The notes: generated by a model not told the origin, from the sequence alone. DNA of 28,930 nt from an uncultured Rickettsiales bacterium (GCA_964451475.1 CAYVII010000001.1:1-28930); one strand, 5' to 3'; positions 13,861 to 28,930 are shown, counted from the first letter of the stretch. Numbers and translations are program-made.

Positions 13861-14133
13861 ATGAAAAGTTCAGTTAAAAAGTTTTTGGCAATAGCACTGG
13901 TTGGCGGTGCGTTATTCGGTGCAACAGGTGCAAGCGCGCATGATTGGGACAATGGCCGTCATAAAGGATATAATAATTGGCATGGTTACGATAAAAAAGT
14001 AGTGCATGTACATAAGCACAAACCTGTAAAATATGTGTATAAACGCTATGAATCACGTCCTAAGTATGTTTATCATGACCACCGCAATTATTATTCAAAA
14101 CCGGACCGTCTGATAATCGGCTTCAATTTCTAG
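13861..14133 (+). CDS. Secreted His/Lys/Tyr-rich small protein ending IGFNF (paralog 1)
   Basis: Signal peptide ending ASA, GGAG RBS, low-complexity H/K/Y mature part, and a C-terminus shared with 14521..14802. Confidence 0.75.
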   Translation: MKSSVKKFLAIALVGGALFGATGASAHDWDNGRHKGYNNWHGYDKKVVHVHKHKPVKYVYKRYESRPKYVYHDHRNYYSKPDRLIIGFNF

Positions 14134-14140
14134 GTAATTC

Positions 14141-14407
14141 GTGGCGACAACCCTTAAAGTAAAAATCATTCCAAATGCCAGCCGGGAAGGAATTTCCGGC
14201 TGGTATGGCGATATGCTTAAGGTGAAGGTTATGCAGCCGCCGGAGGACGGCAGGGCGAATAAAGCACTGCTGGAGCTACTGGCAAATAGTTTTAATGTTC
14301 CTATAGCTACAGTAAATATAATCAACGGTTATAGCTCGCAAATAAAAACTATTCAGTTTCAGGATGATATAAAGTTTTTTGATTTTATTCCGAAGGAAAT
14401 TCCGTAA
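14141..14407 (+). CDS. DUF167 (YggU/UPF0235) family protein
   Basis: LKVKIIPNASR, LKVKVMQPPEDGRANKALLELLA and GYSSQIK match DUF167; GTG start. Confidence 0.85.
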   Translation: MATTLKVKIIPNASREGISGWYGDMLKVKVMQPPEDGRANKALLELLANSFNVPIATVNIINGYSSQIKTIQFQDDIKFFDFIPKEIP

Positions 14408-14462
14408 AGCTGCCGTATATATGATGCAATCAAAATAATAACTAAAATTAGCATTATTTATA

Positions 14463-14516
14463 TTGATTTCAAGGGTTACAAGAGTATAATCAAATTACTT
14501 CTAAAGCCTAAGGAGG
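14463..14516 (+). promoter_or_regulatory. Sigma70-type promoter and strong RBS for 14521..14802
   Basis: TTGATT (14463-14468), 16-nt spacer, TATAAT (14485-14490); AAGGAGG at 14510-14516. Confidence 0.55.
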
Positions 14517-14520
14517 TTTT

Positions 14521-14802
14521 ATGAAAAAAACATTAGCAGCAGCAATTATCGCCCTTGCGGTATTTGCAGCCCCGGCCGCGGAAGCTCGCGACAGGGGGCA
14601 CGGTGGCCACGGTGGTTATCATCACGGTCATCATTACAAGCATCATGACCGCGGTCATTATAAAAAACACAGGGTAGTTCATAACTATTACTATGCTCCT
14701 CCCCGTTACGGCTACTATAGGCCATATTACAAGCATTATGGATATAGATATGACTACTACCATCCAAGGCGTGATGGCGTGTTCATAGGCTTTAATTTCT
14801 AA
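14521..14802 (+). CDS. Secreted His/Tyr/Gly/Arg-rich small protein ending IGFNF (paralog 2)
   Basis: Signal peptide ending AEA, AAGGAGG RBS, GHGGHGGYHHGHHY then YYYAPPRYGYYRPYY, followed by a terminator-like hairpin. Confidence 0.8.
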   Translation: MKKTLAAAIIALAVFAAPAAEARDRGHGGHGGYHHGHHYKHHDRGHYKKHRVVHNYYYAPPRYGYYRPYYKHYGYRYDYYHPRRDGVFIGFNF

Positions 14803-14832
14803 GAAATTACCCAACCATGTTTATCCCTAGTT

Positions 14833-14869
14833 GCGGCCCGGAAGTAAAATCCCGGGCCGTTCCTTTTTG
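14833..14869 (+). terminator. Intrinsic terminator after paralog 2
   Basis: GCGGCCCGG/CCGGGCCGT 9-bp stem followed by TCCTTTTT, between convergent genes. Confidence 0.7.
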
Positions 14870-14886
14870 CACATATATTGTGCTTA

Positions 14887-15786
14887 TTACATAAATAGGA
14901 AGCTTTTTAGCATCATGCTAAAGTTTTTATGGCGGCGCATTTTGCGGTTTTTTATTCCCGCCAGCATTACCTTGGCAATATCTGTTATACGGTAATATGC
15001 GCGCTTCGAACGGTAGTAGTTGAATTCCTCTTTTGTAGGCATTGCGAAATACTGCTCTTTTTCACTGCTTACATCAATTGGCTTTAATTCACCGCATTTT
15101 ATTAGTCTTCGTGCCACTTTCTGAATCAGCCTGCCACCAATAAGAGCCGCCTCCACTAGCACTTGCTGCTGTGTTGCGTTTTCAGGAATACGAAATTCTT
15201 TGCGCTCAAGTATACCGCCGGTGTCTATGCCTTCATCCATTTTATGGATAGTTACACCGGCTTTAGATTCGTTGTTCTTCAGTACCCAGAAATAGCTGAT
15301 AGCTCCGCGGTATTTTGGCAGGTAGCCAGGGTGCATATTCCATACTCCGTGCGGCGCAAGATGAAGTATATCTTTTTCTATAAGCTGGCTGAAGAAGCAT
15401 GAAAGAATAACATCGGGTTTGTGCCTGCGAATAAATTCTGCCGCTTCAATAGTATTTACGTTAGGACAATCCATGACATCTATGTTTTTGCGCTTTGCCA
15501 ATTTTTTGATCGGCACAAGGGCAGTGTGCTTGCCGGGAATTAAACTGGTAAGATAAATTAGCGCGCGGGCAACTTTGTGCTGGAAGTAAAGTGTAAGGGC
15601 AAAACGCAGGCCAATTTTGCGGAAGTATTTTTTTAGGGCGCTATCACCTTTTTTAGTTACGGGTATTGGCTTGGCGCGAAGCATGCCCACTATCTCAATC
15701 TCGGGTGCGGTATCCAGAAGATTGAGCGCAACCGTGCTGCCAATATGGCCACTGGTGTAAAGAACAACGGCGCGGATAGGTTTCAT
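14887..15786 (-). CDS. Stand-alone N10-formyl-THF-dependent formyltransferase (Formyl_trans_N family)
   Basis: WNMHPGYLPKYRG and GVTIHKMDEGIDTG (Asn/His/Asp catalytic residues); lacks the Fmt GTP-F N-terminal motif and the Fmt C-terminal domain. Confidence 0.8.
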   Translation of the reverse strand: MKPIRAVVLYTSGHIGSTVALNLLDTAPEIEIVGMLRAKPIPVTKKGDSALKKYFRKIGLRFALTLYFQHKVARALIYLTSLIPGKHTALVPIKKLAKRKNIDVMDCPNVNTIEAAEFIRRHKPDVILSCFFSQLIEKDILHLAPHGVWNMHPGYLPKYRGAISYFWVLKNNESKAGVTIHKMDEGIDTGGILERKEFRIPENATQQQVLVEAALIGGRLIQKVARRLIKCGELKPIDVSSEKEQYFAMPTKEEFNYYRSKRAYYRITDIAKVMLAGIKNRKMRRHKNFSMMLKSFLFM

Positions 15787-16051: not shown

Positions 16052-16199
16052 GTAGAGCCTAAACCACTCTACACTTTGGGACACTGAAGCGGTATATAGG
16101 GGAAACCAAGCTGGTATGTAATAGTACTACCTTAGGGAGGCCAACCATTAAAGCCAAATCAGTTATTTGTTAAAACGAATAACTTTGGGATTTTATGAG
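16052..16199 (+). ncRNA. Structured 5' leader, probable speF-leader-like cis-regulatory RNA
   Basis: About 150-nt leader of an ornithine decarboxylase with hairpins GTAGAG/CTCTAC, GGTA-GTA/TAC-TACC and AGTTATTTGT/ACGAATAACT. Context matches the alphaproteobacterial speF leader motif; the sequence resemblance is from memory only, no covariance model was run. Confidence 0.5.
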
Positions 16200-17429
16200 A
16201 TGGACAAATACCGCGACGTAGTTGCAGCAGTTAATGCTGTTTCTCCTTCTGAGCCTATGTACATTCACCGCCCTCACATTGTGAGCAAGGCTGCAAAATG
16301 GTTCAAATCAAATTTTAAAGGCAAGGTACTTTACGCTGTAAAGACCAACCCGCATCCTGCCGTGATCAGGCAGATCTATGATGCCGGCATCAAGAATTTT
16401 GATGTTGCGTCACTGGCCGAGATTGAGCTGGTAAAGTCTGTAGCTCCTGAAGCTAAGATGTATTACATGCATCCTGTAAAGCCGCGCGAAGCTATTGCGA
16501 AGGCTTACTTTGAGCATGGCATCAAAACTTTCTCGCTGGATAGTTATGTTGAGCTGGAGAAGATACTTGCTTCAACCAACTATGCAAAAGACCTGCGTCT
16601 TATGGTGCGTATCGCAATCAACTCGCCTTACGCTGAAATTTCTTTGTCTAAGAAATTCGGTATGGCTTGCGATGAGGCGGCGGAGTTCCTTAAATATGCG
16701 CGTAAGTTCAGCAAAAAACTGGGTATCTGTTTCCATGTTGGTTCGCAGTCAATGCATCCTGATGCATTCTCTGAGGCTATCGAAAAAGCGGGCCGTATAA
16801 TTGATGAATCCGGCGTTAAAGTTGATATTATCGACGTTGGCGGGGGCTTCCCGTCAGTTTACCCCGGTATGAACCCGCCTGACCTTGAGCGTTATATGCA
16901 AACTATCCACCGCAGCTTCATGAAGCTGGATCTTGGCGGTAACGTTAAGCTATGGTGCGAACCGGGCAGGGCGCTTGTTGCTGAAAGCGGCTCACTTGTT
17001 GTGCGTGTCGATCTTCGTAAAGATAACGCTCTTTACATCAACGACGGTACATATGGTGGCCTGTTTGATGCCGGTCAGCCTGAATTCGTGTTCCCTACAA
17101 AAGCAATGCGCACAAAAGGTACTGATTTTGACACGGAATATGCTCCGTTCATATTTTATGGCCCGACATGCGATAGCATTGACATGATGAAAGGTCCTTT
17201 CATGCTTCCTGCCGATATTCAGGAAGGTGACTATATAGAGATCGGTCAGTTGGGAGCTTACTCGCTTTCAATGCGCTCGGACTTCAATGGCTTTGGCAAA
17301 TATGTTGAAGCTGAGTCTGAAGACCAGCCTATTATGTCTATCTTCCGCCGTACGCAGGAAATGCCAAAAGTGGCAGCAGAAAAAATTGCTACACGAGGCA
17401 AAACGGCTATAACTAAATTCAGGAAGTAA
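16200..17429 (+). CDS. Fold-type III PLP-dependent ornithine(/lysine) decarboxylase
   Basis: YAVKTNPH (PLP Lys), FDVAS, FHVGSQ, DVGGGF, EPGR, GPTCDS, GAY. ATG 16200 after GGGA preferred over TTG 16167. Confidence 0.88.
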   Translation: MDKYRDVVAAVNAVSPSEPMYIHRPHIVSKAAKWFKSNFKGKVLYAVKTNPHPAVIRQIYDAGIKNFDVASLAEIELVKSVAPEAKMYYMHPVKPREAIAKAYFEHGIKTFSLDSYVELEKILASTNYAKDLRLMVRIAINSPYAEISLSKKFGMACDEAAEFLKYARKFSKKLGICFHVGSQSMHPDAFSEAIEKAGRIIDESGVKVDIIDVGGGFPSVYPGMNPPDLERYMQTIHRSFMKLDLGGNVKLWCEPGRALVAESGSLVVRVDLRKDNALYINDGTYGGLFDAGQPEFVFPTKAMRTKGTDFDTEYAPFIFYGPTCDSIDMMKGPFMLPADIQEGDYIEIGQLGAYSLSMRSDFNGFGKYVEAESEDQPIMSIFRRTQEMPKVAAEKIATRGKTAITKFRK

Positions 17430-17437
17430 ATTAAATG

Positions 17438-17482
17438 AACCAGCTCCGCCCCTTAAAAGGCGGGGCTTTGGTTTTTGTTTTT
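17438..17482 (+). terminator. Intrinsic terminator after the decarboxylase
   Basis: AGCTCCGCC/GGCGGGGCT stem (one G-U pair) followed by TTGGTTTTTGTTTTT. Confidence 0.75.
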
Positions 17483-17497
17483 AATTCAGAGGTCATA

Positions 17498-18049
17498 ATG
17501 AAGGCAATCCTAAAAATCCTTATACTTGTTTTCCTGCTTACCTCAGGTACTGCTCAGGCAGAAAATATCAATATCTACACTGATCAATCTAAAGGCATAA
17601 CCATAACAAAACCTTCTGACTGGTTCTTTGACAGGGATGAAACGCAAAACCTTGTTATTACGGTCGCTAAATATCTTGAGCCTTATAATGACCTTAACCC
17701 GAATATAGAGATAAGCGCGCATCCTGCCAGCGAGTATGGCACTACCGACCCTATGAACGTTCTGGAGTGGCTGCTTGGTAATATATCAAAGTCGGCAGAT
17801 GACTGGAAAGTTATAAAAAGCCCTGCAAAATCAAAGGTAGACGGGCATAGCGCCGCATTTGCCTATATAAGCAAGTCAATGATGCATGAGGGTGTGAAAT
17901 ACCCTCAGAAAATAAAAGTATGGATGGTGCATAAAGGAAATCATTTCATTCTTATAAGAGCTACTGTAAGAGGTGACGAAACTAATGGTTCTATGAAGGA
18001 ACTGGATAATATCCTTAGAACCATTAAACTAACTAAAGACCAGGACTAA
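17498..18049 (+). CDS. Secreted hypothetical protein, possibly PsbP/Mog1/DcrB-like fold
   Basis: ATG 17498 after GAGG; signal peptide ending AQA; ITITKPSDW...KVDGHSA...ELDNILRTIKL pattern resembles PsbP-like proteins. The fold call is tentative. Confidence 0.6.
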   Translation: MKAILKILILVFLLTSGTAQAENINIYTDQSKGITITKPSDWFFDRDETQNLVITVAKYLEPYNDLNPNIEISAHPASEYGTTDPMNVLEWLLGNISKSADDWKVIKSPAKSKVDGHSAAFAYISKSMMHEGVKYPQKIKVWMVHKGNHFILIRATVRGDETNGSMKELDNILRTIKLTKDQD

Positions 18050-18061
18050 AAAGGAAAAGAT

Positions 18062-19300
18062 ATGAGCGAAAATTCAGTGAAAGGTAATTTGCTAATAATC
18101 GGCGCAGGCGCGGCGGGTAGTGTTGTTGCTAAAAAAGCGGCGCTGTGCCGTGATGTTTTTAAGAACATCCATCTTGCAAGCCGTACTGTTTCTAAATGTG
18201 AAGCAGTTGCTAAGGAATGCGCTACGCCAATTGAAGTTTCGCAAATTGATGCCGATGATGCAAAGGCGGTTGCTGCTCTTATCCGCAAATTTAAGCCTGA
18301 ACTGGTTGTGAATATGGCCCTTCCTTATCAGGATCTGCCAATCATGGACGCATGCCTTGAAACCGGCGTGCACTACCTTGATACTGCAAACTATGAACCT
18401 AAAGACGTTGCAAAGTTTGAATATAGCTGGCAGTGGGCTTATCAGGAGCGTTACAAAAAGGCTGGCCTGCTTGCAGTTCTAGGCTGCGGTTTTGACCCGG
18501 GCGTTACCAATATTTTCACTGCATATGCAGCAAAGCACCTGTTTGATGAAATTCATTATCTGGACATTATTGACTGCAACGCCGGTGACCACGGCAAATC
18601 ATTTGCTACCAACTTCAACCCTGAAATTAATATCCGCGAAGTAACTCAGGATGGCCGTTATTTTGAGAATGGCGAATGGCATGAGATCAAAGCCCTGTCT
18701 ATTGGCCGCGATATTGATTATCCTGAAGTTGGCCCTAAAAAGTCATATCTTATATATCACGAAGAGCTTGAGTCTATCGTGAAGAATTTTCCTACGCTTA
18801 AACGCGCGCGCTTCTGGATGACATTCTCTGACAACTACATCAAACATCTTGATGTTCTGCAAAGTGTGGGCATGACTCGTATTGACCCTGTTATGTATAA
18901 CGGTCAGGAAATCATTCCACTTCAATTCCTGAAAGCGCTATTGCCTGAACCTTCTTCACTTGCCGAGAACTATCATGGCAAAACTTCTATCGGCTGCGTG
19001 ATACAAGGTATCAAAGACGGTAAGGAGAAGAAATACATCATCTATAATGTGTGTGACCATGCTATGTGCAACAAAGAAGTTAAAGCGCAGGCTGTTTCAT
19101 ATACTACAGGAGTTCCGGCGGCTACGGGCGCGCTTATGGTCATGAAGGGCTTGTGGAGCGGCACGGGTGTTATGAACGTTGAAGAGTTCAATCCTGATGT
19201 GTTCCTTGAAGAGCTTGCAAAGCAGGGCCTCCCTTGGTCTGTAAAAGAGCTGGATATAGTTGAAAAAACTGAGCCGGTGAACTTCAAGCTAGCGGCGTAA
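18062..19300 (+). CDS. Carboxy(nor)spermidine dehydrogenase (saccharopine dehydrogenase family)
   Basis: IIGAGAAG, HYLDTANYE, GCGFDPG, FATNFNPEIN, NVEEFNPD; TAATG-coupled to the decarboxylase downstream. Confidence 0.9.
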   Translation: MSENSVKGNLLIIGAGAAGSVVAKKAALCRDVFKNIHLASRTVSKCEAVAKECATPIEVSQIDADDAKAVAALIRKFKPELVVNMALPYQDLPIMDACLETGVHYLDTANYEPKDVAKFEYSWQWAYQERYKKAGLLAVLGCGFDPGVTNIFTAYAAKHLFDEIHYLDIIDCNAGDHGKSFATNFNPEINIREVTQDGRYFENGEWHEIKALSIGRDIDYPEVGPKKSYLIYHEELESIVKNFPTLKRARFWMTFSDNYIKHLDVLQSVGMTRIDPVMYNGQEIIPLQFLKALLPEPSSLAENYHGKTSIGCVIQGIKDGKEKKYIIYNVCDHAMCNKEVKAQAVSYTTGVPAATGALMVMKGLWSGTGVMNVEEFNPDVFLEELAKQGLPWSVKELDIVEKTEPVNFKLAA

Positions 19301-20406
19301 TGCTGGATACCTCAAAGATAAAAACACCTGCATATGTGCTGGATGTTGCGTGCCTTAAGGCTAACCTTGAGAAAGCGGCTTTCATCAAGCAAAAAACAGG
19401 AGTTAAAATTATTCTGGCTCTAAAAAGCTGGTCCATGTTCTCTGCCTTTGATTATTTAAAAGATGTTCTTGACGGTACAACCGCCAGCGGCTTGTATGAA
19501 GCTAAACTTGGTCATGAAGAATTCGGCAAGGAAGTGCACGCATATTCGCCCGCTTATGATGACACGGAAATTGAAGAGCTGGCAAAAGTTGCCGACCATA
19601 TTTATTTTAACTCAGCAACCCAGTACGAACGTTACGCTAGTAAATTACCCAATGCTAAACTTGGTATGCGTATCAATCCGCAGCTTTCACAGGTTAAAAC
19701 CGCTCTTTATAATCCGTGTGCACCATGCAGCCGTTTTGGCGTTATTGATGCAAATAGCTTGCCTGAGAATTTAGATGCCCTGCATTTTCATGCATTATGC
19801 GAAAGTAACGCAGAAGAATCTGCTAACTTTATAAATCATATATCTAAAAACTATGCAGCGCAGATTGCGCGTGTGAAAGAGGTGAATTTTGGTGGTGGCC
19901 ATTACTTTACTTTTGCCGGTTATGAAACTGAAAAGCTGATAAACGCGCTAAACGATTTTCAGCAAAAGCATGGCGTTAAGGCAATAATAGAGCCGGGTGG
20001 GGCGCTGGTTTATAATACCGGTTATCTTGTTTCCACGGTGCTGGATTTTGTGTTCAATGAAAAGCAAATAGCAATACTTGACACATCTGCAACGTGCCAT
20101 ATGCCGGATGTACTTGAAATGCCTTACCGTCCTAATGTAATAGGTGACGCAGAGGGTAACCTGCATAAATATTTATTTACCGGCAAAACCTGTCTCACCG
20201 GCGATGTTATTAGTGATTATGCATTTAAAGAGCCGCTAAAAGTTGGAGATAAAGTTGTATTCACAGACATGATGCAATATGCCATGGTAAAAAACACCAC
20301 CTTCAATGGCATTCCTCTACCTGATATCGGTATATTGGACGAGCAGGGCAAGTACCGCGTAGTAAAAGAATTTGGCTACGAAGACTTTAAGGGCCGTAAC
20401 AGCTAG
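19300..20406 (+). CDS. nspC: Carboxy(nor)spermidine decarboxylase
   Basis: LALK, YNPCAPCSRFG, HFHALCE, NFGGGH, EPG, TCHMPD, TCLTGD, KNTTFNG. Confidence 0.92.
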   Translation: MLDTSKIKTPAYVLDVACLKANLEKAAFIKQKTGVKIILALKSWSMFSAFDYLKDVLDGTTASGLYEAKLGHEEFGKEVHAYSPAYDDTEIEELAKVADHIYFNSATQYERYASKLPNAKLGMRINPQLSQVKTALYNPCAPCSRFGVIDANSLPENLDALHFHALCESNAEESANFINHISKNYAAQIARVKEVNFGGGHYFTFAGYETEKLINALNDFQQKHGVKAIIEPGGALVYNTGYLVSTVLDFVFNEKQIAILDTSATCHMPDVLEMPYRPNVIGDAEGNLHKYLFTGKTCLTGDVISDYAFKEPLKVGDKVVFTDMMQYAMVKNTTFNGIPLPDIGILDEQGKYRVVKEFGYEDFKGRNS

Positions 20407-20872
20407 TTTATAAGCTTTATCAATTCTTTTGTTGATTCGCGCAGGCTCTTTTTTGCATTAAATCCTTTTATAACTTTGCCGGTTTTTGTGTCGTGAACAG
20501 GGTTTGCGTCATTAGGGCTTAGGAAGTAACGGTAATCGACCGTAAGTTCCTCACCTGCCCTGATATTACGCAATGCAAACAAAATACCGCAGTGATACAA
20601 CAGGTTTGGCTTTTCCGAATGGTTCACAGTTTATCTTCAACCTTATACTCACCTTTTTTATTTACTAAAAATATATTCCCAACCCAGCGAATGGCTGTTT
20701 CTGTAACGCGCTTATTCTTTTGCTTTTGAGCTGCATCATATTCTTTTTCAGTTATTGCATTAGCCTGGAATGCTAAAATACCCACTACTGCAGCTTTCTT
20801 TATTTTCTCACGGGTAAAGCAGCCTTTTTCGGCGATCTCAGATTTTTTTATCTGTGATCTTACGAGCAGCAT
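20403..20872 (-). pseudogene. SET-domain methyltransferase gene split into two overlapping ORFs (20624..20872 and 20403..20627); frameshifted, naturally split, or a sequence error
   Basis: ORF1 (ATG 20872, TAATG overlap with the aguA stop) carries the SEIAEKGCF...IKK SET N-terminal motif and ends EDKL*. ORF2, in the -1 frame, starts at GTG with NHSEKPN...ALRNIRAGEELTVDY. Confidence 0.72.
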
Positions 20873-21894
20873 TAAGCCGGTTCCTGTTGTGTCAGGCAAT
20901 GAATTGTTCCCTGGCCAAGCACCAGATCCAGCGCGTGGATGCCCACAACTTCGCGTTTAGGAAAGCATTCTGCAAGCACGTTTAGTGCGATACGGTCATT
21001 CGGATCATTAAAGGTTGGAACCATTACGTATTTATTCGTAATAAGGAAGTTGCCGTAAGATGCGGGCAGGCGGAAATCACCGTAAAGCACAGGCTTTGGC
21101 ATAGGCAACTCAATAATATTGCACTTCGTGCGCTTCAGGCGTTTTAGATTTTCCTGCAGGTGTTTGTAATTCACTTCTTTCTTGTTAGATTCTACCACGG
21201 TTACAATTGTATCTGAATTAACAAAGCGTGTTATATCATCTACATGGCCGTGAGTATCATCGCCGGCGATCCCGTTTTCCAGCCAGATAACATCAGGAGC
21301 ACCAAGATATTTAGAAAATACTTCGGCGTAATCATCCTTGGTAAAGCCGGGGTTGCGTTCCTGTATTGGGCTTTGCAGGCATTCTTCGGTAACTAATATC
21401 GTGCCTTTGCCGTTAACATCCAGCGCGCCGCCTTCCATCACTACCTGCTTGCCTTTGTGCATCGGCACAATTTCTTTAAGCTTGAAGTGTTTGTTTATTT
21501 CGGTCGGGACTTGGTTATCAAACTTATGGTTCTTGTATTTTGCCCATGCGTTGAAGCGGAAGTTGCAGAATGCTTTTTCGCCGGCTTTGTTCTTTACGAA
21601 TATTGGGCCAGAATCACGCATCCAGCCGCGGTTTGTAGGAATTTCGTATATTTCAACGTTGTCCATATTAGCATTGGCTTTTTCAAGATATTTTAACGCC
21701 TGAGCTTTGTAGTTTTTGTTCTTAACTATAAGGCGCAGCTTTTCCGAATAGGAGATATAACGCCCCATTTCAGAGAATGCCCATGGTATGGGGCCAAACT
21801 TTGCGGGCCAATCCAGCGTGTAATGCGGCCAGTTAAGCCATGTTGCCACGTGTTTTTCCCACTCTGCGGGCATAGTAAAATTATTGCTGGTCAT
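20872..21894 (-). CDS. aguA: Agmatine deiminase (PAD/AguA family)
   Basis: MPAEWEKH, WMRDSGP, MEGGALDVNG, DDTHGHVDD, ASYGNF, GTIHCLTQQ (catalytic Cys). Confidence 0.92.
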   Translation of the reverse strand: MTSNNFTMPAEWEKHVATWLNWPHYTLDWPAKFGPIPWAFSEMGRYISYSEKLRLIVKNKNYKAQALKYLEKANANMDNVEIYEIPTNRGWMRDSGPIFVKNKAGEKAFCNFRFNAWAKYKNHKFDNQVPTEINKHFKLKEIVPMHKGKQVVMEGGALDVNGKGTILVTEECLQSPIQERNPGFTKDDYAEVFSKYLGAPDVIWLENGIAGDDTHGHVDDITRFVNSDTIVTVVESNKKEVNYKHLQENLKRLKRTKCNIIELPMPKPVLYGDFRLPASYGNFLITNKYVMVPTFNDPNDRIALNVLAECFPKREVVGIHALDLVLGQGTIHCLTQQEPA

Positions 21895-22780
21895 CGAAGC
21901 GCTTTGTGATGTTGGTGTAAGAATCTATGCGACGGTCACGCATGAACGGCCAGAATTTGCGTTTTTCTTCAGTTGCTGTCATATCAACTTCTGCAATCAA
22001 TACACATTCAGATGAGCTATCGGCCTGTGCGATTATTTTGCCGTAAGGGTCAGCCACAAAGCTATTGCCCCAGAATTTAATTCCGCCTTCAGTGCCAACG
22101 CGGTTGATAGCCGCAACATAAACGCCGTTTGCAATTGCGTGCGCGCGTTGAATGGTTATCCAGCTATCAAGCTGTTCGGCGAACATTTGTTCTTGCGGTT
22201 TATCTGAGTTTTCCACGTCATCGGGCTGCCAGCCGATAGCGGTTGGGTAAATTAGCGTTTCAGCGCCTTTTAATGCCGTAAGGCGTGCAGCTTCAGGATA
22301 CCATTGATCCCAGCATACAAGCGTGCCTATTTTACCTGCGGATGTATCAAAGCTTTTATATCCAAGGTCACCGGGGGTGAAATAATATTTCTCGTAGAAT
22401 TTATTATCGTGCGGGATGTGCATTTTACGGTAGATACCGCTTAGTGTGCCGTCACGCTCAAGTATAACCGATGTATTGTGGTAAATTCCGGCGGTGCGTT
22501 TTTCAAAAATGCTGCCTGCAACAACTACTTTATGTTTTTTTGCGAACTCGGAAAGTGCCTGAGTGGTTGGGCCGGGAATTGGTTCAGCCAGTTCAAAAAG
22601 AGCGGGGTCTTCGTACTGGCAGAAATAATCATTCATAAAAAGTTCAGGTAAAAGAATGGCATCTACTTTTTTAGAGGCAGCTTCTTCCATTAGCTTAAGC
22701 GCTGTTTTCAGGCTTTTTTTGCTATCACGGTCACAGGCCATTTGAATTAGGCCTATCTTGTATTTTTTATGGTTTGACAT
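21881..22780 (-). CDS. aguB: N-carbamoylputrescine amidase (nitrilase family)
   Basis: Glu-Lys-Cys triad (PELF, YRKMHIP, VCWDQWYPE), EKYYFTPGD, PTAIGW, RDRR; overlaps the aguA start. Confidence 0.9.
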   Translation of the reverse strand: MSNHKKYKIGLIQMACDRDSKKSLKTALKLMEEAASKKVDAILLPELFMNDYFCQYEDPALFELAEPIPGPTTQALSEFAKKHKVVVAGSIFEKRTAGIYHNTSVILERDGTLSGIYRKMHIPHDNKFYEKYYFTPGDLGYKSFDTSAGKIGTLVCWDQWYPEAARLTALKGAETLIYPTAIGWQPDDVENSDKPQEQMFAEQLDSWITIQRAHAIANGVYVAAINRVGTEGGIKFWGNSFVADPYGKIIAQADSSSECVLIAEVDMTATEEKRKFWPFMRDRRIDSYTNITKRFDDQQ

Positions 22781-22819
22781 AGGGGCAGGTAATTAACATA
22801 ATGCCCCCCAAATAGCAAT

Positions 22820-23005
22820 ATGGAACAAAAAAAGCCCAACTTTTTTAAGCGCGTAAAGCAGTACAAAAACAAAGGAAAGTACGGCAAACGGGCTTTCTAT
22901 ATCTGGATAACGTACCAGACCGTTAAGGGTATTACCACTACATCACTTATCTGGATACCGCTGATTTACGGCTATTTAAAGCACCGCCACCTGTTTGGTT
23001 TTTAA
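22820..23005 (+). CDS. Small basic membrane protein (61 aa), hypothetical
   Basis: Fills the gap between aguB and the regulator exactly; Lys-rich N-terminus followed by hydrophobic segments; no clear RBS. Confidence 0.5.
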   Translation: MEQKKPNFFKRVKQYKNKGKYGKRAFYIWITYQTVKGITTTSLIWIPLIYGYLKHRHLFGF

Positions 23006-23607
23006 TTTATAAGCTTGTAACCTTCACCGCGAACCGTTTGTATCTGGTTAGGGTTGGTCAGTTTTTTGCGCAAGCGGGCAATTTGCACGTCAACCGCACG
23101 TTCGTCTATGCCGTATTTTTGGGATATCTCAGCGCGTGATATTGCGCGGTTCATATTGGCAGAAAGTAGCTCCAGCAGATTTTCCTCGGCTGTTGTAAGG
23201 TTGCCGCTGGTTTCAACTTTTATGCCTTTTACAGGTTGGGTGCGCTTTAATATTGAGTTGATGCGCAAGACCAGTTCTTTTGGTTCAAAAGGTTTGGTCA
23301 AATAATCATCAGCGCCATTTTCAAGTCCGCTTATCCTATCGGCGCTTTCGCCCATTGCTGTTAGCATCAGCACGGGAATATCTGACGTAGTGCGCAGTTT
23401 TTTTAGAAAATCAAAACCGGTTTCTTTTGGCATCATGCCATCAAGCACAATCAGGTCAAACTGCATGTACGCCAGATGTTCACGCGCTGTATGCGCCGAT
23501 TCTGCACCAACTACCATGAAGCCGCTTTCTGTAAGGAATTTGCGCAGTAATGCGCGAAGGCGGTTATCATCATCAACAACCAGTATGTGTGGCAGGGATG
23601 ATTTCAT
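23002..23607 (-). CDS. OmpR-family response regulator (alphaproteobacterial OmpR/PetR-like)
   Basis: ILVVDDD, IVLDGMMP (phospho-Asp), MLTA, GADDYLTKPF; winged helix RAVDVQIARLRKKL...IQTVRGEGY. Confidence 0.9.
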   Translation of the reverse strand: MKSSLPHILVVDDDNRLRALLRKFLTESGFMVVGAESAHTAREHLAYMQFDLIVLDGMMPKETGFDFLKKLRTTSDIPVLMLTAMGESADRISGLENGADDYLTKPFEPKELVLRINSILKRTQPVKGIKVETSGNLTTAEENLLELLSANMNRAISRAEISQKYGIDERAVDVQIARLRKKLTNPNQIQTVRGEGYKLIN

Positions 23608-24896: not shown

Positions 24897-25101
24897 TGCC
24901 GTTCCTCAAATTTTTTCTTTCCTTGTAAAATAAACTTACAAGACCACCACATGAAATCCCAAGTCCAATAGACGTCAGTTGATAAAATATTTTCATTGAA
25001 TCAAGTACCAATGCAACGAAGGCCAACGCAGTTATGAATAGTACAGTGAAAGTCAGGCCTTTTATATACTTATAACGTTCTATCTGTCGGTCTTTTTGCA
25101 T
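24889..25101 (-). CDS. Small two-TM hypothetical protein between nuoE and nuoF
   Basis: TAATG overlap with the nuoE stop and an 8-bp overlap with the nuoF start (its 3' end carries the nuoF GAGG RBS); two hydrophobic stretches. Confidence 0.6.
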
Positions 25102-25691
25102 TACTTAGCCTCCTTCGGCTTAAACCCTTCAGGGGCAGAGCATTGGCGGCCTATAACGCTGCCAGCAGGACGGCGTTTGCCTGTTTTAAGTTCTTTTAGA
25201 ATTTTAGTAGTTTCATCAGGCGTGATGTCTTCATAGTAATCATCATTCACCCAAAGAATCGGTGCGTTTACGCAAGCGCCAAGGCATTCCATTTCTTTCA
25301 ATGTAAATTTACCGTCAGATGTAGTTTCACCAACTTCAATGTTCATGTGTTTTTTGCAGGCATCAAGAATATTATCAGAGCCACGCAGCCAGCACGGGGT
25401 TGTACGGCAAACCCAAACAACGTTCTCGCCCACTTTTTCTGTATGGTATTGCTCATAGAAAGTGGCAACTTCCTGCACGCGGATATATGGCATGTTCAGG
25501 TAATCACCCACATATTCAATACATTCCTGAGAAAGCCAGCCGCCGTTTTGGCGCTGTGCAATATCAAGTAGCGGCATTACCGCTGAAAAGTGGCGGTTCT
25601 CAGGGTATTTTGCAATATGCTTGTCTGCCGCCTTTTTATTTTCTGCGGTGAATTCAAACTTTGCAGGTTCTGTCTTTTTAGCTTTAGCCAT
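25101..25691 (-). CDS. nuoE: NADH-quinone oxidoreductase subunit E
   Basis: VCRTTPCWLRG and ECLGACVNAP [2Fe-2S] cysteines; YYEDITP. Confidence 0.96.
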   Translation of the reverse strand: MAKAKKTEPAKFEFTAENKKAADKHIAKYPENRHFSAVMPLLDIAQRQNGGWLSQECIEYVGDYLNMPYIRVQEVATFYEQYHTEKVGENVVWVCRTTPCWLRGSDNILDACKKHMNIEVGETTSDGKFTLKEMECLGACVNAPILWVNDDYYEDITPDETTKILKELKTGKRRPAGSVIGRQCSAPEGFKPKEAK

Positions 25692-25693
25692 GA

Positions 25694-26437
25694 TTATTCA
25701 ATTTCGTAAGTTATCGTAACGTTAGAGTTTAGTTTGATGCTGCCAAGTATTTCAGTGTCTGTAACAGGCATTGCTTCTGCAGCTGCATTTGCAGTACCCA
25801 TAAACTTGCCGCGCATTTGTGCCATTGGGTAAACTATATTGTCTTCATAACCTTCATAGCGCACGGGTTTTTTAAGTTTTACGCCAAGCTTATTAGCGAT
25901 TTTTTCCGCTTTTGCTTTTGCAGCTTCAATTGCCATATCGCGCACTTTATCTTTATGAGGGGTAATTTCAGTAACGCCATACTGGCCGCTATTTACGCTT
26001 GCATATCCGCTTTCAGCCAGGCCTTCCAGTACAGCATCGTATTTTGTAAGGTCGGTCAGTTTAATATTCAGGCTACGATTTACATCGTAGTAATCAATCA
26101 CTGTCTGATCGCATTTTTTGTAATTACCTTTTTCATCGTAGCAGTTTTTATAAACAGGGTTGATAGAAAGCGAATTACCTTTAATATCGGTTTTTTTCAT
26201 CCCGAATTTACCGGTAAGGTCTTTTAGTATCTTTGCGTAACTTTCATCGTTCAGCTTTTTAGCTTTTGCCAGATCTTTATCGCGGCTGTTAAGGTTAGCG
26301 CTGATGCTCACAAAATCAGGCTTAACTTCAAGTTCTGCTATACCTTGAGTAACCAGCACTGATTTTGAGTACATGTCATCTGCCATTGCAGGTGAAGCGA
26401 TTAGAGCCAGTAGTAGAAATGTGAATATTTTTTTCAT
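25694..26437 (-). CDS. Secreted SIMPL (DUF541) domain protein
   Basis: Signal peptide ending AMA; [42 protein letters not shown]. Confidence 0.85.
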
Positions 26438-27636
26438 CGGTCGATCTCTCCAAATACGATATCCTGTGTTGCAATAAGAGCGGTTACGTCGGCCAGCAAG
26501 TGGCCTTTGCTCATGAAGTCTAAGCCCTGAAGATGCGCAAAACCGGGCGCGCGGCAGAAGCAGCGGTAAGGTTTGTTTGTGCCGTCAGAAACTATGTATA
26601 CGCCGAATTCACCTTTAGGCGCTTCAACGGCAGTATATGTTTCACCTGCGGGAACGCGGTAACCTTCAGTGTAAAGTTTGAAGTGGTGGATAAGCGCTTC
26701 CATTGAATGCTTCATTTCTGAGCGTTTTGGAGGAGCTACTTTTTTATCAGACGTTTTAACAGGGCCGGAAGGCATTTTTTCGCATGCCTGTTTGATAATT
26801 TTTAGACTCTGGCGCATTTCTTCCATGCGGATAAGGTAACGGTCATAGCAGTCACCGTTTTTACCGATCGGTATATCAAATTCATAATTCTCGTAGCCGT
26901 CATATGGCTGGCTTTTGCGCAAGTCCCACGCAACGCCTGAGCCGCGCAGCATCGGGCCGCTAAAGCCCCACTCGAACGCTTCTTCTTTTGAAACCACCCC
27001 AATATCAACAGTACGCTGTTTAAAAATACGGTTCTCGGTTAAAAGCTCATCAACATCGTTCAGTATCTTAGGATAAGTTTCAGTGAATTTGTAAATATCA
27101 TCAATAAGGCGCTGGTCAATATCTGCCGCTACTCCACCCGGACGGAAGTAAGCTGAGTGGAAGCGAGCACCGGATGCGCGCTCATAGAATTCCAGCATTT
27201 TCTCACGTTCTTCAAACAGCCATAGAAGCGGCGTCATTGCGCCAACGTCAAGCGCGCCTGTAGTTACGTTCAGGATGTGGTTAAGTATGCGTGAAATTTC
27301 AGCGTACACAACGCGAATGGCTTGTGCGCGGGCAGGAATTTCGCAACCTAAAAGTTTTTCAACTGCCAGTGAATATGCGTGCTCCTGATTCATTGGAGCA
27401 ACGTAATCAAGCCTGTCAAAATAAGGTAGCGCCTGCAAGTATGTTTTATATTCAATCAGCTTTTCAGTGCCGCGGTGGAGCAGGCCGATATGCGGATCGG
27501 CACGGTCAACAACCTCACCTTCCATTTCCAGTATCAAACGCAGAACGCCGTGCGCCGCAGGGTGCTGCGGACCAAAGTTGATGGTTACTTTATCGTCCTC
27601 GCGGGACTCTATCATTTGCTCGATATTGATGGTCAT
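26434..27636 (-). CDS. nuoD: NADH-quinone oxidoreductase subunit D
   Basis: [40 protein letters not shown]. Confidence 0.97.
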
Positions 27637-28061
27637 TACTGATTGAAATTCGCGTTACTGTTCATTGATGATTGGCCAAGCACGGTGTTCTGGCCAAGAG
27701 TTATAATAATATTGTCAGGATATTTATTTGCCGCGCCCGTGCTTGCGTCAACTATAGCACCTACGCCAAGAGTCAATGCCGCACCGCCGTAACCCCATGC
27801 ACCCACGTCAGAAAGAACTTTGGCAGTTCCAGATGCGCTTCCGTTTTGCGGAACGCATGTGATCTCAATAGGTTTAACCGACTTTGGAACGTTCACAGTG
27901 CCGGGGGCATTGAAAGAAGTATTGTAATCTTCGCCTTTTACCGAGCAGTTTGAAGGAACTGAAGGTGAAGTTGCAACAGTAAGGGTTTGCGTACTACCTT
28001 CAATAATTGAAGCACATGAAGATATTAGCAGTGCAGAAGTAATAAGAAGGAACTTTTTCAT
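27636..28061 (-). CDS. Predicted lipoprotein, paralog of 10213..10818
   Basis: Lipobox ISSC (Cys16), CASIIEG, NAPG, VDASTG, YP; GGAG RBS; TAATG overlap with nuoD. Confidence 0.78.
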
Positions 28062-28069
28062 ATGGTCTC

Positions 28070-28930
<861 letters not shown>

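Follow-up and report, generated by a model that had tools for sequence, protein, structure and literature searches.

What does a gene for a SET-domain methyltransferase do at the end of a bacterial polyamine cluster? The question is raised by a 28,930-nucleotide stretch of DNA from an uncultured Rickettsiales bacterium (GCA_964451475.1, CAYVII010000001.1:1-28930; hereafter the window, with positions counted from its first letter), in which the end of a spermidine-synthesis cluster, comprising genes for an ornithine decarboxylase/arginine decarboxylase (ODC/ADC)-like protein, a carboxynorspermidine synthase/dehydrogenase (CANSDH)-like protein and NspC, is abutted by a three-gene array on the minus strand, aguB-aguA-SET (Table 1). 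In the prevailing view, SET domains methylate protein lysines and function mainly in eukaryotes, and the role of the sporadic prokaryotic SET genes in the cell is largely obscure. A prediction made earlier from the sequence of the window (the original prediction) had suggested that the SET protein may methylate putrescine, agmatine or spermidine, or regulate the pathway enzymes by lysine methylation.

The best explanation that we can offer, to which we assign a probability of roughly 0.45, is that the SET protein belongs to a prokaryotic family acting in polyamine metabolism, for which methylation of a pathway amine is proposed, and that the copy in the window is a recent pseudogene. The original prediction is partly supported: the link to polyamines is stronger than could be known from the window, the aguBA-SET arrangement is a rare local form and the copy found here is broken.

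A family of stand-alone SET proteins

The third gene of the array encodes a predicted stand-alone, SET-fold N-methyltransferase of ~155 amino acids (aa) that depends on S-adenosylmethionine (SAM). Read through the frameshift described below, its translation matches the Pfam SET model PF00856 with 42.8 bits (cut-off 22.4; E=7.6e-11) over model positions 2-104 of 105, too full a match to be coincidental; every homolog found carries PF00856. When 1.84 billion representatives were searched with a profile built from the first homologs, 72 clusters (50% identity) emerged at E<=1e-30 and 188 at E<=1e-10. A further search gave a list of 380 proteins (E<=1e-10) from bacteria of many phyla and from DPANN archaea, with source names including Nanoarchaeota, Aenigmarchaeota, Tepidisphaeraceae, Humisphaera, Thermodesulfobacteriota, Deltaproteobacteria, Spirulina, Lentisphaerae and Alphaproteobacteria. 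The best 150 members listed are nearly all single-domain proteins, mostly of ~150-200 aa (up to ~260), whose matches extend over the whole length of the profile. Family members are annotated solely as 'SET domain-containing protein', and NCBIfam holds no model for the family. Cultured carriers include the Lentisphaerota strain zth2 (L004, CP071032) and Spirulina sp. 06S082 (P0045). By sequence, they form a distinct prokaryotic family of stand-alone SET proteins of ~155-170 aa with a C-terminal extension of its own.

The family conserves the canonical residues G15-x-G17-x-F19, N83-H84-S85 and E108-L-T110-x-D-Y113, of which N83 (100%), H84 (99%), E108 (99%) and Y113 (98%) align with the motifs of MLL1, together with the family-specific residues R62, L91-Y-H-C-G95, F125-x-D127-xx-T-G and G136, as well as a terminal helix (residues 139-154). 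The GxG loop reads G15 (85%)-x-G17 (97%) in the family and E-K-G in both the window and the relative L001, whose intact 155-aa protein is designated P0001. Among PDB sequences the profile matches the SET domain of MLL1 best (E=1.6e-12), with GxG, NHS and ELTxDY aligned; vSET and LegAS4 also match, the similarity to LegAS4 being confined to the SET core (E=6.7e-7). Modeled with AlphaFold, P0001 has a predicted local distance difference test score of 96.2 and a predicted template modeling score of 0.90, and Foldseek relates it to the SET domains of MLL1, EZH2, NSD, ASH1L, SETD2 and vSET with a top probability of 1.00 and template modeling scores of 0.55-0.65. In the model, P0001 has the beta-clip/knot fold of SET domains.

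Relative to canonical SET lysine methyltransferases (PF00856; MLL1, EZH2, NSD, PBCV-1 vSET and Legionella LegAS4/RomA), the family is alike in fold, in the NHS motif, in the Tyr of ELTxDY and, in most members, in the GxG-type loop. It differs in being stand-alone at ~155 aa, without a pre-SET region, a Cys-rich post-SET region or accessory targeting domains, in possessing the conserved C-terminal segment (F125-x-D127-xx-TG...G136 and the terminal helix) and in being encoded in polyamine clusters. Secretion-related domains are likewise absent, whereas host-directed SET effectors of the LegAS4/RomA and NUE type carry extra targeting or secretion modules that are not found in the 155-aa SET-only protein.

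Gene neighborhoods across the family

Usable genomic context was available for 14 lineages with well-diverged SET proteins. The SET gene lies directly beside or within polyamine genes in five of these, and polyamine genes occur within 7 kb of it in two more. A survey of homologs of this kind is what the original prediction had proposed, and polyamine genes turn up in one part of the sample and not in the other seven lineages. The immediate associations involve different partners. In the window and L001, aguBA-SET faces nspC. In a cyanobacterial metagenome-assembled genome (MAG; L007), a spacer of 18 nt separates the SET gene from the next open reading frame (ORF) on the same strand, which encodes an agmatinase and scores above the TIGR01230 cut-off. 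In L017/L018, speA is divergent from speB-speY-SET, which lie on one strand; SpeY scores 570 bits against NF002699 (cut-off 500), and the gene set matches an agmatine-dependent homospermidine route (PMC13625781). Aenigmarchaeota (L022) carry speD-speE-SET on one strand, with speD and speE both above equivalog cut-offs, and in Nanoarchaeota (L015/L016) SET is flanked on one side by an ODC-like gene and a deoxyhypusine synthase (DHS) gene and on the opposite side by an uncharacterised gene, speE and speD. The two nearby cases are an alphaproteobacterial MAG (L003), with an agmatinase gene and an ODC-like gene 2.5-5 kb off behind a conserved ~800-aa gene, and Lentisphaerota (L004/L006), with a non-lysA ODC-like gene 4.5-6 kb off. 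All ODC-like neighbors of SET score far below the lysA cut-off, which rules out their being lysA.

Random neighborhoods among the homologs, which the original prediction had named as the outcome that would speak against it, were not what was found, as polyamine gene clusters directly house the family members of a cyanobacterium, of two DPANN archaea and of the metagenomic lineage L017/L018. Because partner genes (aguA, speB, speY, speE) and orientations vary, the adjacency must have arisen several times and not descend from one inherited block; in a rough neighbor-joining tree, the linked members are scattered among unlinked ones, and the window clade lies next to two DPANN sequences. The pattern is nonrandom and speaks for a functional connection with polyamines. 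In the full-text literature, no paper was found that links prokaryotic SET genes to polyamine genes: a review of bacterial SET proteins makes no mention of polyamines (PMC3980110), and a 2026 study of SpeY gene clusters makes no mention of a methyltransferase (PMC13625781). The association between this SET family and polyamine genes is an undescribed one, built on a known fold and an annotated domain.

Possible substrates

We propose that the family acts in polyamine metabolism because its linkage to four different polyamine routes is recurrent and independently assembled. N-methylation of an amine would be the simplest mechanism, because these routes share only small-molecule products or intermediates, all with a 4-aminobutyl primary amine. 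The 4-aminobutyl end, -(CH2)4-NH3+, matches a lysine side chain in shape, so that the lysine channel of the SET domain may take this end of putrescine, agmatine, spermidine or homospermidine, and the enzyme may then methylate its amine with SAM. The small-molecule substrate, like the link to polyamine function, is an inference. It is possible, though rather doubtful, that the family is the first SET-fold class to N-methylate free polyamines or agmatine-type amines, an add-on to at least four pathways in bacteria and DPANN archaea, and the prokaryotic counterpart, possibly even the source, of the methyltransferase domain found in diatoms. If the substrate is a polyamine, SET-fold chemistry extends to small molecules, prokaryotes have a route to N-methylated polyamines, and the methylation step proposed for the silica-forming polyamines of diatoms becomes accessible to experiment.

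A tentative alternative is an ordinary protein-lysine methyltransferase whose target protein is tied to polyamines, which would explain co-regulation. Candidate targets are a pathway enzyme (in a regulatory role), a ribosomal, translation or nucleic-acid-binding protein on which polyamines act as well, and the archaeal aIF5A/deoxyhypusine system. Every SET enzyme of solved structure matched here is a protein-lysine methyltransferase, and all studied SET methyltransferases target protein lysines (PMC1282579). In Nanoarchaeota, moreover, SET is divergent from a true DHS-type gene (best model deoxyhypusine synthase NF002294, which it matches with 337 bits, slightly short of the cut-off, 350), and in L026 a SET protein of another subfamily follows a PAD_porph gene in a cluster with radical-SAM and short-chain-dehydrogenase genes, where both could act on a peptide. 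The partners, however, differ by lineage, so that the common factor is the small-molecule pathway and no single protein; the DHS homolog of L017 is of the agmatine-condensing SpeY type and not a modifier of IF5A (PMC13625781), and no candidate protein-substrate gene is conserved beside the family. We judge a small amine only slightly more likely than a protein lysine whose methylation is coupled to polyamine supply, and in the latter case lysine methylation would serve as a regulator tied to this supply. With either substrate, a SET family that travels with polyamine genes in unrelated bacteria and archaea offers a concrete and cheaply testable hypothesis.

The SET gene of the window

The original prediction had described the SET gene as joined to aguB-aguA by overlapping codons, and the coordinates and the Pfam SET match bear this out. 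The TAA of aguA (20874..20872) and the ATG of SET (20872..20870) share one A in TAATG, which reads CATTA on the plus strand at 20870-20874, and L001 has the same junction (CCTAATGCTG). The overlap between aguB and aguA, as read from the sequence, is 14 nt, and the stop codons of SET and nspC overlap in the palindrome CTAG (20403-20406), a convergent overlap that L001 shares. The three genes of the array are probably co-translated, to judge from their arrangement.

The reading frame of the SET gene is not intact. From the ATG it reads MLLVRSQIKKSEIAEKGCF...EDKL and, after codon 82, meets TGA (20626..20624); this 5' part aligns to residues 1-82 of P0001. The remainder lies in another frame, VNHSEKPN...AGEELTVDY...LIN, which holds the SAM-binding motif NHSEKPN, YHCG, the motif GEELTVDY that includes the catalytic Tyr, and the C-terminal extension specific to the family. 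In a DNA alignment the window has CTGTGAAC where L001 has CTGAAC, that is, TGTG in place of the single TG of the intact relative, and the inserted TG falls directly before the NHS motif, splitting the N-terminal from the catalytic part. The motifs that the original prediction regarded as retained (KGCF, NHSEKPN and GEELTVDY) are all present, though across two frames, as its mention of halves had implied, and all nearly invariant family residues are kept in the two halves.

Run X1 has the insertion in a contig of 6585 nt (word depth 15.6) that is identical to the window over 19300-22900, and a second contig, of 152 nt and from run X4, spans it without gaps; both are Illumina-derived contigs, from two samples of the same bioreactor study. 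The repeat being a dinucleotide and not a homopolymer, and the insertion being seen in both X1 and X4, an assembly error is ruled out. The check was made on contigs, with which a minority intact allele would be compatible, and covers the X1 and X4 populations, as the contigs of two wastewater studies (X2 and X3) end before the site. A 175-nt contig of an RNA run covers 20341-20515, where it spans the convergent gene ends with undefined strand.

Could the split gene still function, either by ribosomal frameshifting or by termination and reinitiation to give fragments that reassemble? The GTG of the 3' ORF overlaps the TGA of the 5' ORF in GTGA (20627..20624), and the halves contain no further stops and keep all conserved residues. 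Programmed frameshifting was nevertheless rejected as unlikely, since GAT AAA CTG TGA contains no slippery heptamer, and no convincing Shine-Dalgarno sequence precedes the GTG. The L001 sequence, which lacks the extra TG, is plain coding sequence, the break falls directly before NHS within the knotted catalytic core, and outright loss of SET in sister lineages makes decay the simpler account. We consider a functional split highly improbable. Most likely the window copy is inactive and a recent pseudogene, which fits the complete absence of SET from two sister lineages, and in this genome the gene is to be annotated as a frameshifted pseudogene.

Close relatives and selection

Four related lineages, with flanking proteins 79-92% identical to those of the window, were compared. 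L001 has aguB-aguA-SET facing nspC, and its intact P0001 is 79% identical to the SET protein of the window. In L012 (a 131-kb contig) the order is nuo-response regulator-aguB-aguA-nspC-CANSDH-ODC, with the stops of aguA and nspC overlapping in TTAA and no SET gene, and L013/L014 have a SET-less aguA-nspC junction like that of L012. The novelty that the original prediction saw in an aguBA-SET operon stands as far as the literature searched is concerned. The arrangement was found only in the window and this one relative, and SET is absent from two other close relatives.

Between the window and L001, the nonsynonymous divergence (dN) of SET is 0.148 (0.142 and 0.156 for the two halves), with saturated synonymous divergence (dS), and that of nspC is 0.161. 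Because dN is low, equal in both halves and comparable to that of nspC, the SET gene was under purifying selection for most of the divergence of the two lineages, and the frameshift is probably recent. The window and L001 are never mutual nearest relatives in aguA, nspC or CANSDH; a simple gain of SET in a single ancestor of the two is not favored, as the flanking-gene trees do not pair the carriers. The trees instead favor an ancestral SET gene that was lost more than once, and one gain followed by recombination could also be accommodated, given that the gene trees conflict with one another.

A patchy distribution of this kind might also reflect incidental linkage, with SET as a dispensable accessory gene between convergent genes, such as a eukaryote-like, histone-targeting effector of a protist-associated alphaproteobacterium, and no role in polyamine metabolism. 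SET is present in two and absent from two of the four lineages, whose flanking proteins are here 85-92% identical, the window copy is frameshifted, and other lineage-specific small genes have been inserted in the same cluster. The nearest named relatives by NuoF include the amoeba symbionts Paracaedibacteraceae and Odyssella, most of the bacterial SET proteins known are directed at the host (PMC3980110), and the GC content of SET (0.37-0.41) is slightly under that of its flanks (0.42-0.46). We nevertheless regard incidental linkage as unlikely: SET directly adjoins polyamine genes in four further, unrelated lineages, free-living cyanobacteria and DPANN archaea among them, its start overlaps the aguA stop in both carriers with zero intergenic space at either end, its product is a bare 155-aa SET domain with a family-specific tail and without secretion-related or targeting domains, and dN is low against saturated dS.

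Points against a role in polyamine metabolism

Several observations weigh against the proposal that the family acts in polyamine metabolism. The SET gene is dispensable in the clade of the window, being absent from L012 and L013/14 and frameshifted here. The window clade departs from the family consensus at G15E (the first G of GxG), G27A, Y81K and D102N. The polyamine cluster gathers lineage-specific small genes, and insertion of accessory genes at the locus is common. No polyamine gene was seen near SET in seven of the 14 lineages (L002; L008, whose SET is close to that of L003; L010; L011; L019; L020/21; L023; L024), and the sample is small and was chosen by us from the closest homologs and long contigs. 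On the assumption, which was not measured, that ~0.5% of genes are polyamine-biosynthetic, the chance of finding one within two genes on either side is ~2% and that of at least five of 14 lineages p ~6e-6, which is to be taken as an indication and not as a statistic. The results on neighborhood, fold and sequence fit a polyamine and a protein-lysine substrate alike, and we know of no SET enzyme that methylates a small molecule.

Comparison with known polyamine systems

The closest precedent is found in diatoms, whose AdoMetDC-aminopropyltransferase fusions in some cases include, as one domain, a histone N-methyltransferase for which N-methylation of long-chain polyamines has been proposed, according to PMC12029483, which cites Michael (2011, FEBS Lett 585:2627). 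The fusion that the original prediction had invoked as a precedent is a real one, as a proposal. In both cases a histone-methyltransferase-type enzyme is linked to polyamine synthesis, and speD-speE-SET of L022 matches the diatom fusion in its three activities and in their order. The systems differ in that those found here are prokaryotic and consist of separate genes. A single polypeptide of the diatom type was not seen, as the best 150 members listed are almost all single-domain proteins and speD, speE and SET of L022 are separate adjacent genes. To our knowledge, the diatom proposal has itself not been put to a test.

The only well-known SAM-dependent N-methylator of a simple diamine is plant putrescine N-methyltransferase (PMT), which is therefore a functional analogue of the activity proposed (PMC3725402). 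PMT is a class I enzyme with a Rossmann fold that derives from spermidine synthase and is unrelated to the SET fold.

The array itself resembles the aguBA operons for agmatine deimination (agmatine to N-carbamoylputrescine to putrescine) in its adjacent, overlapping aguB and aguA homologs, clustered with decarboxylase and spermidine-synthesis genes, and differs from them in that SET is appended as a third gene and that the enzymes of the window fall below NCBIfam equivalog cut-offs. The best models are TIGR03381 (agmatine_aguB) for AguB, with 279.2 bits against a cut-off of 410.25, and TIGR03380 (agmatine_aguA) for AguA, with 241.7 bits against 381.8; together with the CANSDH-like protein, both are well under these cut-offs. 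The exact guanidino or carbamoyl substrates of AguA and AguB could differ from those of the canonical enzymes, and some AIH homologs have been shown to have differing substrates (PMC13625781). All three proteins might act on intermediates of the aminopropyl- or carboxyaminopropyl-agmatine type instead of agmatine or putrescine.

Other features of the window and of related loci

Table 1. Genes and junctions at the aguB-aguA-SET locus of the window
Feature	Position	Strand	Remarks
aguB-like N-carbamoylputrescine amidase gene	21881..22780	-	299 aa; opens the array; Pfam CN_hydrolase 1.7e-62, full-length domain
aguA-like agmatine deiminase gene	20872..21894	-	340 aa; Pfam PAD_porph 2.3e-103, full model
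SET gene, 5' part	20624..20872	-	82 aa; SET-N and SET-I regions; KGCF replaces GxG; premature TGA 20626..20624
SET gene, 3' part	20403..20627	-	-1 frame; 74 codons from GTG 20627; stop 20405..20403
Stop/start junction TAATG	20870..20874	-	aguA stop and SET start overlap by one base
Frameshift site TGTG	20625..20628	-	2-bp TG insertion; plus strand CACA
nspC, carboxynorspermidine/carboxyspermidine decarboxylase gene	19300..20406	+	convergent with SET; TIGR01047 449.7 bits, above cut-off 409
CANSDH-like gene (carboxynorspermidine synthase/dehydrogenase)	18062..19300	+	Pfam Sacchrp_dh_NADP and Sacchrp_dh_C; NF043000 429 bits, below cut-off 800
PsbP-like gene	17435..18049	+	204 aa; weak match
Alanine-racemase-fold ornithine/arginine decarboxylase-like gene	16167..17429	+	Pfam Orn_Arg_deC_N 2.8e-41; not lysA

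The cluster contains aguA and aguB and no speA-type arginine decarboxylase gene; besides nspC, its sole decarboxylase gene is the alanine-racemase-fold, ODC-like gene, for which lysA was ruled out (164 bits with the lysA model, cut-off 298). By analogy, this gene may encode an ODC turned arginine decarboxylase, a change reported in alphaproteobacteria (PMC13625781). The PsbP-like gene lies between the ODC-like and CANSDH genes, and a hydrophobic stretch at the N terminus of the predicted protein hints at a signal peptide. L012 lacks the gene, and in L001, where no homolog turned up, unrelated genes of 217 and 194 aa lie between CANSDH and nspC. A gene of the same length (204 aa) beside SET at the Nanoarchaeota locus proved to be unrelated to it.

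Scans of the window for tRNAs and Rfam families gave no matches, and a promoter and terminator scan of 20200-23100 gave fewer sites than shuffled sequences. A run of nuo-sized ORFs at 25101-28804 corresponds to the nuo operon of L012 (1342-7082), which has small extra called ORFs between nuoA and nuoB, nuoC and nuoD, and nuoE and nuoF. NuoF, which is too conserved for a finer placement, puts the organism, which has a low GC content and comes from a bioreactor or wastewater, among uncultured Alphaproteobacteria, its nearest named relatives (81-83%) being a CG11 MAG, Paracaedibacteraceae and Odyssella.

A metagenome scan with the narrow pattern YHCGI[LV]FA found two loci only, and a tblastn search with P0001 found no match in plasmid and phage collections. 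Matches in viral contigs are limited to the SET core (~residues 1-127 or less), except in L032 (residues 1-150). The ~800-aa protein of L003 (10492-12843) has a 59% identical counterpart in L008 (6715-9168); neither has a Pfam match, and both genes are convergent to SET in GC-rich alphaproteobacterial MAGs. In L003 this gene comes last on its strand after the ODC-like and agmatinase genes, and the ODC-like gene (13930-15169) matches in two adjacent frames, probably through an assembly frameshift error or because it is a pseudogene. On L024 (1-16471 of a 125-kb contig), which resembles a giant virus or some other genome associated with eukaryotes, a family member lies beside genes for an intein-containing family-B DNA polymerase, an SNF2 helicase and a UCH peptidase and an ORF of >3400 aa. 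Finally, the IMG/VR contig L026 (3264-8483) holds a second, independent deiminase-SET pairing, in which a 167-aa protein of a different SET subfamily with a Cys-rich CTCGSPYC tail is encoded directly after a PAD_porph/agmatine-deiminase-family gene; the pair sits in a same-strand run with radical-SAM, PAS-like, membrane and short-chain-dehydrogenase genes in a Firmicutes-like element.

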